Shown: positions 30,115-35,163, numbered from the stretch's first letter. The stretch: 35,277 nucleotides of DNA from Candidatus Heimdallarchaeota archaeon (GCA_021399345.1 JAAFKI010000053.1:1-35277); one strand, 5' to 3'. Numbers and translations: made by a program. Notes: generated from the letters alone by a model not told the origin.

Positions 30115-31317
30115 ATGTCTGGCTTTGATTATGTAGAAGAAGCAATGTTTGGGAAATCCATTTTCAAAAATGAATCCTCTCTCTATCCTGAGTATGTTCC
30201 ACCAGAGCTCCCAAGAAGAGAAGAGGAGATTAAGAGACTAGCTAGAAATTTCCGATCACTTCTAGGACAAGAAGGGTCATTTTCAGTTAATGTTGCTATA
30301 GTTGGAAATGCTGGAATTGGAAAAACCAATTTGTGTAAATATACTATGAAAAGGTTCGAAAGTACAGCAAATTCAAGGCATATAAATGTAAAATTCTTAT
30401 ATTATAATTGTCATTCTTTCAGAAGCAAGACAGCTATTTTACGTAATGTCCTATCAGAACACTTCCACATTCAATCTAGGGGTTTTAGTGATGAAGAAAT
30501 TCTAGATATGCTAGTAAAACGATTAATCAAAGAAGATATACGATTAATAATCGCTCTTGACGAGGCTAATATGTTGAATTCCGAAGATATTTTGAGTATT
30601 TTCCATGCTGGAGAGTATTTCGGTTCAGAGCAAAGCATGATTTCAACAATAATAATTTCCAGACCTACTGAATGGAAATCTCTTTTGAATGTGCCTTTAT
30701 CTGGGCATATTCACGATCAAATAGATGTTTCTGGTTATTCAAGGGACCAATTGCTGGAAATTCTTGAATATAGATCTAGTATGGCGCTCTATCCCACTTC
30801 TTACTCTGATGAAACATTGAATCTTATTGCGGATATTTGTGCTTCTTCTCAAAATGCAAGACATGGTCTCGAAATTCTATACAGATCTGGAAAACTTACT
30901 GATTTAAAACAAGAGAACTTCATTGTTCCTGATTATATCAGAGCTGCAAAAGCTGATGTTTATCCAGAACTGAGAAGAGATGTTTTATCTGAGCTTAGAG
31001 ATCATGAATTATTAGCTGCTTTAGGTGTTGCGAAAAAACTTTCACTAAAGGGCGTAACATCTACAACTGTTGATGAAGGTTACGACAGTTATCTTTTAGC
31101 TTGTGAGGAACATGAAGAAGAATCACGCGGAAAATCAACTTTCAGATCTGCTATAGAAACCTTAGATAAAGTAGGTGTTATTGGTAAAAGTGTAGGACCA
31201 ATTGAAGAAGGAAAAAGAGGAAGACGTGCTAAAATAACCACTTTTGATATTCCTGCAACTGTTCTTGTAGAGAGAATTGAGAATATATTATCAAAACCAA
31301 GGGATTCGAAAGATTAG
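30115..31317 (+). CDS. cdc6: Orc1/Cdc6 family replication initiator
   Basis: LYPEYVP..LPRREEE, Walker A GNAGIGKT, Walker B IALDEA, C-terminal wHTH (GKRGR). Confidence 0.95.
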   Translation: MSGFDYVEEAMFGKSIFKNESSLYPEYVPPELPRREEEIKRLARNFRSLLGQEGSFSVNVAIVGNAGIGKTNLCKYTMKRFESTANSRHINVKFLYYNCHSFRSKTAILRNVLSEHFHIQSRGFSDEEILDMLVKRLIKEDIRLIIALDEANMLNSEDILSIFHAGEYFGSEQSMISTIIISRPTEWKSLLNVPLSGHIHDQIDVSGYSRDQLLEILEYRSSMALYPTSYSDETLNLIADICASSQNARHGLEILYRSGKLTDLKQENFIVPDYIRAAKADVYPELRRDVLSELRDHELLAALGVAKKLSLKGVTSTTVDEGYDSYLLACEEHEEESRGKSTFRSAIETLDKVGVIGKSVGPIEEGKRGRRAKITTFDIPATVLVERIENILSKPRDSKD

Positions 31318-31320
31318 ATA

Positions 31321-31554
31321 TTAATTGACACAAATCATTGTCATTGAATTCTTTACTCCTTCTAGAATTATATTGTTGTTCAATACTTGATTTTTCAATT
31401 CGTCCATTGTTCCGAATTCAATCTTTACAATTAAATCATAGATACCATACACTGCGTAAACTTCTGTAACTTCTACAATGTGTTTGAGACCCTCTTGAAC
31501 TTTTTCTAACATGCCCGATTGGACGTTTAGAAGGATATAAGCTGCTTGTGTCAT
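31321..31554 (-). CDS. Stand-alone Lrp/AsnC ligand-binding (RAM) domain protein
   Basis: AYILLNV...VYGIYDLIVKIE...GVKNSMTMI. Confidence 0.9.
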   Translation of the reverse strand: MTQAAYILLNVQSGMLEKVQEGLKHIVEVTEVYAVYGIYDLIVKIEFGTMDELKNQVLNNNIILEGVKNSMTMICVN

Positions 31555-31675
31555 TTTCAGAATAGACTCCTTTTACATGACACTTTCGAATGCATTTAAA
31601 AAAACTAACATTGGGACATGTCACTAGAAGAGCAGGAAAAATATTTCTTTTAATAGAGAAAAAAAAGAATAGCAA

Positions 31676-32956
31676 TTATTCTTTTTGAATCTTTAATCTT
31701 GCTTTACAAGCTGGGCAAGTTCCATTTCCAACAACCCATTGATATAGATGGTTTTTATGAAAAGCTATATCACAAGAAGGACATCGTATGATAGTCTCTT
31801 TCTTTGAAATAGTTTGTAAACATATAGAACAAGTAACAGTGATGGCTTCTTTTGTAACTAAATTATAGTTAATGTCTTTTTTCTGGAAATCAACATCATA
31901 AACGAGCTTAGGTGAATATTCAACTTTATTTTTATTCAAACTATGATTTGTTACTCTATTCTTTTTTCTTCTTTGGAAGAGTTTGAATGAAATGAAAACA
32001 CCAGCAAGGTACAATACAGAGAATAATACGATTATTGGATTAGCTGTAAAAAAGGGTGGAGTGTTAGTTTCGATAGAATCATCGATGATTTTCCATTGAA
32101 AAGCTAAGTCAGAATACTTTTTATCAAATGGAATATCTGCAAGATTTTTTGCTCCTGTATTAATAAATAACCTTGCGATATTTTCGGTTTGAACATGATC
32201 ATAAAATAAACTAATTAAAATGTCGTTTTCAGCATTATAATCACTAAAGTTAAAGATTATTTCATACCAATCCCCTTCAGATATCCCCCCATCTATCCCT
32301 ATATTTAACTCTGATACGTCACTTATTGCGAAATTATCAGATTCTGATTTGATAGATGTCTGATTTTCATCAAGAAGATTAAGAGTGTAGTTAGTTGTTT
32401 CAAGGTATCTACTGCCTAAGATTGTAACTAGTTTGTCAATACTCTGGTAATATTCTGCAAATCTCTCTACTCCAAAGAAAAATTGAGGTTCTAAATTAAG
32501 ATTCATGGAATAGGTCCAGATAGGATAAACATCTGATACTGTAAAATTAAATAAACATTCTTCAACATAAAGTGAACTTACTCTAACTCTAATAATTTCA
32601 TAAATTTCCAATCCAGTTGTAAAATAATGTATTCCTGTATCACCATGATTGATTAACCAACTATCGTAAATGGTTTCACTCTGATCTAAGACTAATTGTA
32701 TCATAAGACCATTGTAAGGCCCTTGTATAACACTTCCCCATTCCTGAACAGAAATACTAAATTCGAATACTGCTCCTTCGATAAGAATGAAATACTCACT
32801 GTTGTTATAGGAAGAACTAACTTTAAGACTATAACTTTTATCTACAGCTTTTGTTGTTGTGTCATCAGTGATAACCAATCCATTTGTATGATTTAGTAAT
32901 GTCATGGTTAATGAAAGAGATATAAAAAAAAGAAAGAGAGTTTTTGATTTACTCAT
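31676..32956 (-). CDS. Single-pass membrane protein with cytoplasmic RING finger (putative E3 ligase)
   Basis: Signal peptide, ~280-aa beta-rich ectodomain, TM followed by QRRKKNR, and C-x2-C-x12-C-x2-C-x4-H-x2-H-x3-W-x6-C-P-x-C. Confidence 0.82.
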   Translation of the reverse strand: MSKSKTLFLFFISLSLTMTLLNHTNGLVITDDTTTKAVDKSYSLKVSSSYNNSEYFILIEGAVFEFSISVQEWGSVIQGPYNGLMIQLVLDQSETIYDSWLINHGDTGIHYFTTGLEIYEIIRVRVSSLYVEECLFNFTVSDVYPIWTYSMNLNLEPQFFFGVERFAEYYQSIDKLVTILGSRYLETTNYTLNLLDENQTSIKSESDNFAISDVSELNIGIDGGISEGDWYEIIFNFSDYNAENDILISLFYDHVQTENIARLFINTGAKNLADIPFDKKYSDLAFQWKIIDDSIETNTPPFFTANPIIVLFSVLYLAGVFISFKLFQRRKKNRVTNHSLNKNKVEYSPKLVYDVDFQKKDINYNLVTKEAITVTCSICLQTISKKETIIRCPSCDIAFHKNHLYQWVVGNGTCPACKARLKIQKE

Positions 32957-32960
32957 TTGA

Positions 32961-35036
32961 TCACCGCTTCTTACGTTTTATGAATCCAAGCAAAGCTGTT
33001 AATCCAAGTATGGTTACAAAGATTGGCCAAGACGAAGATTGATAGTAATGATCATGTGTGTCGTACTCATTCTCATTAACAAAGCCTATGTCAATCTCCC
33101 CAACATGATAATCTGCAACAACCAACATCAAAAATTCATCTTCTGTAAGATATACTTCACTACTTTGTTTGTATAGGTAGTCCATACTACTTGCATTGAA
33201 CACATAGATTCCTGTTTGAACCACATATGAATCAGCATAAAATTTGCATTGTTCTGTAGATTCTAAGCTATTGTCTATCTCAAAAAGATAAGCGTCATCA
33301 GCTCCAATATCCACACTTATCTTGTCTCCCAATTCAAGTCTCCGAGGTATTGCATTTGCTATAGTCACTTCTATAATTTCTGAAGAGACCAAAGAGATTT
33401 TTATGGTGTGACTAGCTGGGATTGCAATTACATCATAGTTGGATCCGAGTTTATCTAGAACAATTGAAGAATAAGCTACATCTACTGCTAAGATGTCATA
33501 GGTATCATAGGTATCACCAATAATCATTCCATAGGAATCATTGAATGGATGTCCTGTTAAGCGATAAATAACTCTCTGATTAGGATATAAAACTATCTCT
33601 TTTTTCTTGTTAAAAGGTATTAATGAATACTCATAGATGTTAGAGAAATCAATATTTTGTATCTCGCTAGAAATTCTATTTCCGAGCCAATCCTCAGTAT
33701 AGATTTGATAATACAAAAACTCTGTTTGTTCAGTAAATAGTAAAGATAGACAGTATGAGTCGTTGAATAGTGATGTGGCATTAGCAATAGTCCAAAAAAT
33801 AGCTCTGTCAAATTTATAGTAAATCTCAACAAATGAAACTCCTGTAACATCTTTTATTTCACTCATGATATTTACATACTTCTCATCAGTTAGAAAATCT
33901 TCACCAAAGTAGACCCAAGTATCAATTTCCGGAGGCAAATCGTCCAATAAAACAACAAATGTTTTTTCGATGCTTCTTCTTTCATCTTGATCATTCTGGT
34001 GAGATAATTGAACGGTTATTTTGAAATCCAATTCAACTGCATAGAGTACTATTAATTCTCCAATGATATCTGGAATGTCTGTTGTCTGAGGATATTCAAA
34101 ACCAATTTCAACATAAGTACCTCCTGTTATTTCAGCTCCAGGACGTAACTGGTCAAAAACCTGATTACTCGAACCAGTAGCTGCAATAGTACAAAGTATA
34201 AACCCTTCAACTGCATATTGTTGATAGATATCGTTTAGTTGAGAAGTTGATCTAATGACAGTTCCACCATTATCTACTTCATCAGTAATTAACACTACCA
34301 ATTTAACTGCATCAGTACGCCAATCAAGATTCATCTTAGTAGCATATAATGCGTCACCCCAAGGTTCAGTACCACCATTAGCTGCAGTTTGAGCTAACAC
34401 ACTAACAATATCTTCAACATCGAAAGTGAGGGGAAAGATCAAGCTATCTTCTAGATAGGGATTATAATCAGGATTGCCCCCAAAGAGAACCAAACCTACT
34501 CGGAGATCAGGAACTTCTAAATCGATTTCATCAATAACTCTGATTAATTCGCTAGTTAAAGTTTCGATTTCATCTCCCATAGAACCAGACTGATCAAGAA
34601 CGATGGCCAAATCTAGAGCAGAAGAAACTTCTGCAGTGGATTCTGTAAGGATTGAGTGTTCGTTGGTAATCCATGATTCTCCTATTTCAAGATAATCTTT
34701 AGTAGAATCAGACGGATTTTGTATTGTTCCAAAGTCGTTTGTTTGGGCATAAAATTCCAGAAGATCAAGCTCTTGGTCCGAATTATTTGTTACATTAAAA
34801 CAAACACTAAAAGAATCTCCAGGTAGAGTACTTGGAATGTTATCCGAACGGTAGGACTGCAAGTCTGTTATCATCTCAATTGAGACATTATCTAAAGGAC
34901 TTGTTGTTTCAAGACTTAACTGATTTATAACTGGTGAAAAACTCTCAGTTTTACTAATTACATGCATGATAGGTGTGAATAAACCTACCAGCACAATTGT
35001 GCAAAAAATTATTCCGTTTATTTTCATTTGTATCAA
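32961..35036 (-). CDS. Cell-surface vWA-domain protein with Ig-like domains and C-terminal membrane anchor
   Basis: Signal peptide; MIDAS DQSGS, GGTEP, WRTDAVKLVVLITDE; C-terminal TM with KRKKR. ATG at 35027 is an alternative start. Confidence 0.88.
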   Translation of the reverse strand: MIQMKINGIIFCTIVLVGLFTPIMHVISKTESFSPVINQLSLETTSPLDNVSIEMITDLQSYRSDNIPSTLPGDSFSVCFNVTNNSDQELDLLEFYAQTNDFGTIQNPSDSTKDYLEIGESWITNEHSILTESTAEVSSALDLAIVLDQSGSMGDEIETLTSELIRVIDEIDLEVPDLRVGLVLFGGNPDYNPYLEDSLIFPLTFDVEDIVSVLAQTAANGGTEPWGDALYATKMNLDWRTDAVKLVVLITDEVDNGGTVIRSTSQLNDIYQQYAVEGFILCTIAATGSSNQVFDQLRPGAEITGGTYVEIGFEYPQTTDIPDIIGELIVLYAVELDFKITVQLSHQNDQDERRSIEKTFVVLLDDLPPEIDTWVYFGEDFLTDEKYVNIMSEIKDVTGVSFVEIYYKFDRAIFWTIANATSLFNDSYCLSLLFTEQTEFLYYQIYTEDWLGNRISSEIQNIDFSNIYEYSLIPFNKKKEIVLYPNQRVIYRLTGHPFNDSYGMIIGDTYDTYDILAVDVAYSSIVLDKLGSNYDVIAIPASHTIKISLVSSEIIEVTIANAIPRRLELGDKISVDIGADDAYLFEIDNSLESTEQCKFYADSYVVQTGIYVFNASSMDYLYKQSSEVYLTEDEFLMLVVADYHVGEIDIGFVNENEYDTHDHYYQSSSWPIFVTILGLTALLGFIKRKKR

Positions 35037-35163
35037 GATATCATTATTGTGAGATGTTAATAAATCTTTCTCTCGCGGTTGTTTTTACCCTTTGTACTTC
35101 CGTTCTACTTAAAATATCAAAATTCCGATATATTTATATATTCTTTATATTACTGTATTCTTG

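Follow-up and report, generated by a model that had tools for sequence, protein, structure and literature searches.

The minus strand at positions 31676-35036 of a 35,277-nt stretch of Candidatus Heimdallarchaeota archaeon DNA (the window, in whose coordinates all positions are given) is filled by two open reading frames (ORFs), the first for a surface protein with a von Willebrand factor type A (vWA) domain and the second for a transmembrane protein with a RING finger. As listed, the vWA ORF covers 32961..35036 with a TTG start at 35036; we preferred the ATG at 35027 (MKING...) because 21 orthologues begin there, and residues of the vWA protein are numbered from this Met. Four nucleotides (32957-32960) separate the vWA stop from the RING ATG (32954-32956). 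The coding-strand junction reads GCGGTGATCAAATG, and GGTGA(TC) within it overlaps the vWA TGA stop (32961-32963). Shine-Dalgarno-like sites of this type are complementary to the 3′ end of archaeal 16S rRNA. The vWA gene itself lacks a Shine-Dalgarno site and is preceded by an AT-rich TATA-like box ~30 nt before its ATG, a layout that matches the expectation for an archaeal bicistronic operon, namely a near-leaderless first gene and an internal gene led by a Shine-Dalgarno site. Oligo-T runs act as archaeal terminators, and the T8 run past the RING gene is a likely transcription stop. The original prediction for this region had placed two co-oriented genes 4 nt apart, with the GGTGA ribosome-binding site of the RING gene overlapping the TGA stop of the vWA gene, and the minus-strand ORFs and the coding-strand sequence bore out both statements. 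The features of the locus are collected in Table 1.

Table 1. Features of the vWA/RING locus, with window coordinates and the basis of each assignment
Feature	Position	Strand	Basis and remarks
vWA surface protein gene	32961..35027	-	688 aa + TGA stop; ORF, translation, orthologue starts, Pfam VWA, model mean pLDDT 82.6
N-terminal hydrophobic signal/anchor segment, aa 1-24	34956..35027	-	Hydropathy maximum 2.43; model helix 3-20
N-terminal beta-sandwich strands, aa 48-128	34644..34886	-	Model secondary structure; precede the vWA domain
vWA (Rossmann-like) domain, aa 138-331	34035..34616	-	Pfam, whole-genome match, structure comparison Z 18-19
MIDAS motif D145-Q-S147-G-S149	34581..34595	-	Invariant in 22 sequences
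Middle beta-sandwich, aa 333-460	33648..34031	-	Model; predicted docking surface aa 399-416 and 443-453
Membrane-proximal beta-rich domain, aa 474-651	33075..33608	-	Model secondary structure
C-terminal hydrophobic helix, aa 667-687, and basic end KRKKR	32964..33029	-	Hydropathy; model
GGTGATC Shine-Dalgarno-like site	32959..32965	-	Sequence; junction kept in 21 loci
Type-I membrane RING protein gene	31676..32956	-	426 aa + TAA stop; ORF, translation, 33-sequence alignment, model mean pLDDT 75.3
N-terminal signal-like helix of the RING protein		-	Hydropathy, model
First ectodomain beta-sandwich, aa 36-144	32525..32851	-	Model (39-144 in the sandwich as modelled); predicted docking residues 63-65, 85-87, 98-115
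Second ectodomain beta-sandwich, aa 146-266	32159..32521	-	Model secondary structure
Single transmembrane helix, aa 305-334, then basic juxtamembrane RRKK	31955..32044	-	Hydropathy maximum 2.33; model helix 307-334
Cytoplasmic RING finger, aa 375-423	31688..31834	-	Pfam zf-RING_2 above cut-off
T8 run	31659..31666	-	10-17 nt past the RING stop codon; sequence
Divergent 136-nt spacer	35028..35163	.	AT-rich TATA-like boxes; two TATCAAnATATC-type motif copies at 35031-35047 and 35111-35141
wHTH-like gene, first 38 codons	35164..35277	+	Cut by the contig end, continues on C18; matches the L082 orthologue

In the printed frame of the first protein, Pfam VWA matches aa 142-290 with 40.7 bits (cut-off 23.8; E 3.7e-10), and a profile search of the whole genome placed a VWA match at 34161-34613. 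Structure comparison of the model gave Z scores of 18-19 to many vWA domains, with an rmsd of 2.5-2.9 over 172-194 residues. Across 22 sequences DxSGS (145-149), E221 and T248-D249-E250 were invariant, and from these conserved residues the vWA head is predicted to bind a metal ion at a metal ion-dependent adhesion site (MIDAS). Integrin beta headpieces aligned over model residues 97-363, with strands on both sides of the vWA domain, and the domain possibly sits inserted in a sandwich in an integrin-beta 'hybrid'-like manner; the protein is not an integrin, and ArnB, TFIIH p44, Rpn10 and ITIH1 tied in Z with integrin beta. The N-terminal hydrophobic segment may be cleaved as a signal peptide. 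At the other end a W/F-P...hydrophobic...K/R pattern is conserved in the 22 sequences, and the C-terminal helix could be a membrane anchor or possibly a sorting signal.

Two further observations concern this C-terminus. Its reading as a Heimdall-CTERM sequence (NCBIfam NF045529) was rejected, at 11 bits by hmmscan and 14.9 in the genome search against a cut-off of 24; no protein in that genome search reached the 24-bit cut-off (best 19.9), and control genomes also gave weak matches. A gene of the Exosortase_EpsH family (46 bits; G000:C53:36485-39279) lies ~1.4 kb from a ThiF/E1-like gene, and with it C-terminal processing of the vWA protein is possible.

The ectodomain of the RING protein extends to about aa 300, ~270 residues that are rich in N-x-S/T sequons. 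Its cytoplasmic part comprises ~90 residues, with a linker of about 40 residues before the RING. The zf-RING_2 match (aa 375-418) scored 32.1 bits against a cut-off of 27.3, and those of six orthologues scored 30-36 bits. Throughout an alignment of 33 sequences the zinc ligands C376, C379, C392, C395, H400, H403, C414 and C417 were invariant, as were W407 and P415 among the residues of E2-contact type; I378 was kept in at least 90%, and position 418 (K418) was mostly K/R. In RING-H2 ligases the positions equivalent to I378, W407, P415 and the basic residue past the last Cys are E2 contacts. The model of the finger has the expected short strands and a helix (401-411) at a pLDDT of about 80-88. 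The best solved RING relatives were Arkadia (8.7e-07), EL5, RMR1 (6.8e-05), RNF24, RNF38, ZNRF1, ZNRF3 (8.6e-04) and RNF13 (0.072), which are active eukaryotic RING-H2 E3 ligases, with RMR1, RNF24, RNF13 and ZNRF3 membrane-anchored.

The canonical cross-brace spacing is C-x2-C-x(9-39)-C-x(1-3)-H-x(2-3)-C/H-x2-C-x(4-48)-C-x2-C. Aligned with Arkadia, the finger has Ile397 where the canonical ligand-4 His would stand; its second knuckle is C392-x2-C395, four residues precede ligand 5, and ligand 6 is His403. The resulting C2-C2-H2-C2 pattern with its CxxC second knuckle is PHD-like in spacing, and the zinc finger might accordingly be a non-catalytic interaction module, the pair then forming a two-chain adhesin or surface structure anchored to a cytoplasmic protein or nucleic acid. 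The finger of related partner proteins in another family (f5, see below) lacks HxxH..W, so that residues of E2 type are not always kept in this class of receptor. We nevertheless regard a non-catalytic finger as improbable: the putative E2-contact positions I378, W407, P415 and the basic residue past the last Cys are conserved, the best sequence matches were active E3s and not PHD fingers, and the Pfam RING model exceeded its cut-off whereas the PHD model reached 12.8 bits against a cut-off of 24.

Fold searches with the RING protein gave only generic beta-sandwich matches. Foldseek returned tandem beta-sandwich ectodomains such as those of SIDT1/2 at a TM score of about 0.2, a protein-atlas search returned mostly other RING proteins at TM scores <0.3, and structure comparison of the first sandwich gave a Z of about 10 to GOLD, PirA and collagen-binding jelly-rolls, barely above the search background. 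A PA domain was found neither by Pfam in the RING protein nor among the fold matches, and absence from the fold list does not exclude that family. A profile search of 1.84 billion representatives with the ectodomain yielded only 18 clusters, and the six longer ones scanned all carry a RING.

The original prediction had further described a vWA protein with a metal-ion-type head and almost no cytoplasmic tail, and a partner with an ectodomain, one transmembrane segment and a cytoplasmic RING. The Pfam VWA match, the MIDAS residues and the helix 667-687 followed by KRKKR and the stop agree with the first description, as far as sequence can tell; hydropathy, the model and the zf-RING_2 match confirmed the second.

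A ubiquitin (Ub) system that could serve such a RING is encoded in the same genome. The assembly (3.27 Mb in 199 contigs, 88.6% complete) contains four UQ_con (E2), two ubiquitin, three ThiF/E1 and 18 zf-RING_2 matches, the last amounting to a large RING repertoire; the presence of Ub, E1 and E2, on which the prediction had leaned, was thus borne out. Two Ub/E1/E2 clusters lie on contigs C123 and C136, and the pair is encoded far from both. A ubiquitin gene is at C123:71543-71755, E1 genes are at C123:70630-71358 and C136:33997-34893, and the UQ_con proteins are encoded on C110, C136, C184 and C123. No other vWA-RING pair was found in this genome, as no other neighbours occurred among its five VWA and 18 RING matches. 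At G000:C192:25335-27429 a zf-RING_2 match closes each of three tandem genes, whose open frames measure 308, 319 and 420 aa.

We then consider how the pair is distributed. By the database names of close homologues, 'Candidatus Heimdallarchaeota archaeon' among them, the genome belongs to Heimdallarchaeaceae; the AB_125 orthologue is 54% identical. Of 30 other genomes in this family, 23 yielded the RING-protein ectodomain and 22 the vWA protein. The ectodomain was not found in any of 370 genomes from the rest of the phylum. In every case found, the vWA gene lies directly upstream of the RING gene in the same orientation, the synteny that the prediction had proposed to look for. Across 21 orthologous loci the vWA stop is TGA, mostly preceded so as to give (G/A)GTGA, i.e. 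GGTGA or AGTGA, and the RING start lies 4-7 nt past the vWA stop or overlaps it as ATGA. Locus L107, from a more distant relative, differs in both outer flanks, and the vWA and RING genes are still adjacent there with a 4-nt gap.

Genomes that miss one gene of the pair also miss the other or have it truncated. Neither gene is present at the locus in G020, G011 and G012. In G018, a close relative (Orc1 97% identical), a single deletion at an 18-nt microhomology (GATGGTTTTTATGA..) took out the whole vWA gene, three other genes and the greater part of the RING gene; comparison of this locus (L110, G018:C115) with L082:6645-6662 and L082:12367-12384 shows that ~5.7 kb was lost, from inside the RING gene to inside a gene that we call unk453. 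In G016, of another genus, these three genes are missing along with the vWA gene and the signal peptide of the RING protein; this independent deletion ends at a nearly homologous unk453 position and leaves ~72 codons. The absence of the pair from G029 is only apparent, because the contig ends inside the RING gene. Two copies of the RING gene are interrupted: that of G014 (L088:8273-9548) is broken into two frames close to an A-run shortly past the start, and that of G035 (L072) has one in-frame TAA. These frame breaks may be sequencing errors or decay.

Binding between the two proteins was assayed by complex prediction, with aa 25-688 of the vWA protein and aa 25-345 of its partner, both given as alignments. 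Three runs gave ipSAE values of 0.72, 0.76 and 0.76, and the best control gave 0.00. The pair thereby passed a mark that 58 of 80 solved complexes and 2 of 110 mismatched pairs reach, counts that hold roughly, with custom alignments in use. The runs share at least 50% of their contacts, at a partner pLDDT of at least 77. Residues 399-416 and 443-453 in the middle sandwich of the vWA protein are placed against residues 63-65, 85-87 and 98-115 in the first sandwich of the RING protein, and the MIDAS face lies outside this interface and stays free. We know of no solved complex like this pair, so that the pass is unlikely to reflect a memorised structure. On the RING-protein side, interface residues are better conserved than the rest of the ectodomain (identity-to-reference of 0.56 versus 0.41; 1.4% of random residue sets reach this), and the most conserved part of the ectodomain consists of the interface residues W100, D106, H110 and S99-I102. 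In the vWA-protein alignment W412, Y404, Y440, Y443, D446 and N450 are invariant. An interface, for which the original prediction had proposed to look, is thus predicted with clean controls, and the two ectodomains are predicted to bind each other, a statement of model confidence and not a measurement.

Homologues of the vWA protein occur outside the family. Full-length versions, which measure ~700-740 aa and have both a signal segment and a C-terminal transmembrane segment, were detected in 13 of 22 genomes of f5 and 9 of 11 of f7, two other families of the same class (Heimdallarchaeia), and in 3 of 14 of f19, a Loki-type family from a different class, one of whose genomes is a single contig of 6.0 Mb. 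Profile E values ranged from 1e-50 to 1e-66, and hhalign matched the vWA-protein alignment to the f19 protein with 99.95% probability over 490 columns. An adjacent single-pass partner was present in 11 of the 14 loci examined. The partners in f7 (1005-1020 aa) consist of a large ectodomain, a transmembrane segment, a zinc ribbon and a RING of the same CPxC..HxxHLxxW..CPxC variant (hhalign E 9.6e-12). Those of f5 carry an extracellular seven-blade WD40 propeller, a transmembrane segment, and a RING-like C4-C(H/D)-C2 finger plus zinc ribbon, the finger being the one without the HxxH..W signature; an alternative f5 partner is a 1557-aa protein without a finger. In f19 the partner comprises an ectodomain, a transmembrane segment and two cytoplasmic winged-helix domains (HTH_HVO_0163_N + HTH_24), in both loci that have it, and is a candidate membrane-tethered transcription factor.

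The partner ectodomains are not visibly related between families: hhalign found nothing between the RING ectodomain and the Loki-type partner (probability 0.2%), and the SWLI..GD..H.F motif of the docking segment was not found in the scanned partners of other families. With respect to the individual loci, the f5 propeller partners lie at L120:7985-10321, L119:7980-10307 and L126:2884-5206; in G064 one ORF encodes the propeller and another the transmembrane/zinc-finger part, and in G058 the partner gene runs convergently and not in the same orientation. An f7 pair lies in L127, and the f19 vWA gene of L118 at L118:5533-7746. The f19 partner overlaps the vWA gene by 4 nt at L118:4139-5533 (G137) and is separated from it by 45 nt at L116:674-2131 (G135).

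The vWA-anchor protein thus looks like a common subunit, or co-receptor, and the partner like a variable transducer. The occurrence of one vWA family beside partners with other outputs is the strongest argument for a role in sensing, and the original reading of the pair as a ligand-binding plus a signalling subunit is supported and strengthened by homologous vWA-anchor proteins encoded next to single-pass partners that bear RING variants or two winged-helix domains. The reading that we favour, at about even odds, is a heteromeric receptor at the cell surface in which a RING E3 ligase forms the transducer chain. On this hypothesis, the two genes would form one transcription unit for two single-pass surface proteins. 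Subunit A would present a MIDAS head on a beta-sandwich stalk, with its C-terminal helix in the membrane and a basic tail of five residues inside; subunit B would consist of two beta-sandwich ectodomains, a transmembrane helix and ~90 cytoplasmic residues ending in the RING-H2-like finger. The ectodomains would assemble A and B into a receptor-type ubiquitin ligase, the middle sandwich of A resting on the first of B. The RING would recruit one of the genome's E2~ubiquitin conjugates, and occupancy or clustering of the vWA head would change which cytoplasmic or membrane proteins, possibly including the receptor itself, are ubiquitylated. We infer E3 activity for the RING, an external ligand for the vWA head and an effect of ligand binding on ligase output; the term 'adhesin' is a guess.

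Several observations weigh against this receptor-ligase hypothesis. The pair is dispensable, given its absence from G011, G012, G018 and G020 and its truncation in G016. At the classic MIDAS Thr position (aa 220) the residue varies, next to the invariant E221. The RING departs from the canonical pattern in its CxxC second knuckle, where RING-H2 fingers have CxH, and in the His at ligand 6, so that E2 binding has to be assumed. In the vWA protein the interface is not conserved above the ectodomain background (0.63 versus 0.59), and the docking segment is also conserved in Loki-type homologues with unrelated partner ectodomains; its conservation may reflect the fold and not this interface. Finally, the flanks of the pair are collinear too, with genes for adenine deaminase, an AlaX-like and an AMP-phosphorylase-like protein, GNAT, Orc1/Cdc6 and a small AsnC-type ligand-binding protein.

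Because the wider neighbourhood is collinear within the family, adjacency by itself carries less weight than it might seem to. Taken to its end, the argument would be that the two proteins do not interact at all and are neighbours through conserved gene order in an origin-proximal region, where Orc1/Cdc6, GNAT and other neighbours are equally collinear in 12 loci. This is highly improbable in our judgement, since conservation extends to the 4-nt coupling, the pair persists in the rearranged context of L107, the complex prediction came with zero-score controls, and the layout of a vWA protein with a single-pass partner recurs in other families.

A different function would be served if the RING protein acted on the vWA protein itself. 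Clearance of client receptors is established for the RNF43/ZNRF3 and MARCH ligases, and the RING protein could be a dedicated turnover or quality-control factor, and not a signal transducer, that binds the vWA ectodomain and ubiquitylates the vWA tail, or itself, to set the surface level of the vWA protein, with a possible feed into the Asgard ESCRT machinery. The binding prediction and the operon coupling apply equally to this case; almost every orthologue has a vWA tail rich in K/R close to the membrane, and the RING linker of about 40 residues could reach it. However, the tail is only five residues long and in at least one orthologue (L076) it reads RNRRR, without Lys; the positive-inside rule would in any case lead one to expect a basic tail; and the DNA-binding partners of the Loki type fit signalling better than client turnover. 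We hold turnover to be rather unlikely.

Upstream of the vWA gene, the divergent spacer leads to three genes on the other strand, encoding a winged helix-turn-helix (wHTH)-like protein (~130 aa), a ParA/MinD-like ATPase (252 aa) and unk453 (453 aa, with transmembrane segments at both ends). The orthologous trio lies at L082:10063-12589. Contigs C177 and C18 overlap, with the break inside the wHTH gene (C18 of G000 is locus L115), and in the stretch's own genome the trio follows directly past this break. The TATCAAnATATC-type motif of the spacer lies near both promoters, is conserved in nine orthologous spacers including that of the rearranged L107, and may act as an operator. In the window it is not significant (three matches versus 2.66 expected), and cross-species conservation is what supports it. 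A protein-atlas search with unk453 gave scores <0.9 throughout.

The function of the pair might then be exercised at the level of a family-specific five-gene module (pair plus trio) that places or regulates a surface assembly, or that forms an accessory island, with ubiquitin signalling as one part. The five-gene block is intact in L107, where the outer flanks differ, and is continuous across the contig break in the genome studied here; unk453 is absent from all five genomes without an intact pair; the deletions in G016 and G018, where all five genes are missing or truncated, both span the vWA gene and the trio; and the motif at both promoters is conserved as far as L107. Yet each of these deletions is a single event, which makes the co-loss weak evidence, about 4.8 kb separate the two arms of the block in G019, the trio was not found beside the pairs of a vWA protein and its partner in the f5, f7 and f19 loci fetched, and the spacer motif lacks significance within the window. 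These data suggest a family-specific association of the five genes, and we give the module reading a slim chance.

With respect to known systems, the proposed heteromeric receptor ligase is close to the eukaryotic receptor-type RING-H2 ligases ZNRF3/RNF43, which work with LGR4/5 and R-spondin as co-receptor and ligand. Like these, the RING protein has a signal peptide, an ectodomain, one transmembrane segment and a cytoplasmic finger of RING-H2 type (ZNRF3 RING match, E 8.6e-04), and a second surface protein carries the ligand-binding function, here a predicted one. Unlike them, its ectodomain is modelled as two jelly-roll-like sandwiches, with no PA domain seen, the host is an archaeon, the vWA partner is encoded in the same operon, and the RING has a CxxC second knuckle and His as ligand 6. 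Type-I topology and a C-terminal RING-H2 are shared with the PA-TM-RING family (RNF13, RNF128/GRAIL and plant RMR1, i.e. At5g66160), from which the RING protein differs in that no PA domain was detected by Pfam or fold search; we know of no vWA co-subunit for PA-TM-RING proteins. Integrin alpha/beta likewise combines two single-pass chains with short tails, one of which has a MIDAS vWA domain flanked by beta-strands; the counterpart in the vWA protein is a predicted MIDAS, with an invariant Glu beside the usual Thr position. In contrast to integrins, the present pair has no PSI or EGF matches in Pfam, the RING partner has no propeller, one tail is a RING, and the predicted contact involves aa 399-453 of the vWA protein, outside the vWA domain. 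Among the relatives, only those of f5 pair the vWA protein with a WD40 propeller. Other Asgard 'integrin-like' families have been described (PMC9258230).

Two prokaryotic systems provide further comparison. Reconstitution of the Caldiarchaeum subterraneum Ub cascade (E1/E2/RING) showed that such an archaeal cascade can work (PMC5654768). As in that case, an archaeal RING is found here in a genome with eukaryote-like Ub, E1 and E2; the Caldiarchaeum RING, however, is small, soluble and encoded inside the ubiquitin operon (PMC5654768), whereas ours forms the tail of a surface protein encoded elsewhere. Prokaryotic vWA-MoxR systems with RING components have also been described (PMC7159879), and vWA-MoxR/Bat systems resemble the present one in having a prokaryotic vWA protein with a partner encoded alongside. 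The vWA protein has a weak NCBIfam BatA match (21 bits against a cut-off of 380). Unlike vWA-MoxR/Bat, there is no MoxR AAA+ or DUF58 gene in the neighbourhood, which consists of Orc1/Cdc6, an AsnC-type ligand-binding protein, GNAT, wHTH, a ParA-like ATPase and an unknown protein; moreover, the vWA protein is extracellular with a stalk, and its partner is a transmembrane RING protein.

Our literature search found no paper on a vWA/transmembrane-RING pair. We see the archaeal pair as a candidate variant of receptor-type transmembrane RING ligases with a co-receptor. Such ligases, and the control of surface proteins by ubiquitin, are regarded as eukaryotic features. If the pair is active, the coupling of surface events to ubiquitin transfer would predate eukaryotes, and the pair would be a minimal system to reconstitute. 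A compact conserved operon in the lineage closest to eukaryotes, together with its own Ub/E1/E2 and a mutable predicted interface, makes the system testable, and the pairs with DNA-binding or propeller-bearing partners are natural comparison points. More tentatively, and with rather low confidence, we consider a modular Asgard platform in which an anchored vWA co-receptor docks on interchangeable single-pass transducers, with a RING ligase (Heimdall group) or a membrane-tethered winged-helix transcription factor (Loki group) as the output. If this were true, eukaryotic receptor-coupled ubiquitylation would have a prokaryotic forerunner in the RING version, which might feed the ubiquitin-ESCRT pathway of Asgard archaea.

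On its downstream side the operon adjoins a gene for a 77-aa AsnC-type ligand-binding domain (31321-31554) and the Orc1/Cdc6 gene (30115-31317), both conserved family-wide. We rejected the AsnC-type gene as a third operon member: it stays beside Orc1 in genomes without the pair, and the unit therefore ends at the RING gene. A 79-aa ORF with a TTG start (31436-31675) was treated as spurious, having no Pfam match and overlapping the conserved AsnC-type gene region. A metatranscriptome run contained a single 242-nt contig that matches the vWA gene at 34081-34319 with one mismatch and may represent RNA or carried-over DNA; it lies inside the gene and not across the junction, and is thus no test of co-transcription. 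A second RNA run gave no match to the stretch. The DNA runs in which the stretch occurs carry the labels marine sediment, cold seep and seawater metagenome. Near Orc1/Cdc6 there is, in addition, a ParA-like gene, and this neighbourhood may be an origin-proximal region.

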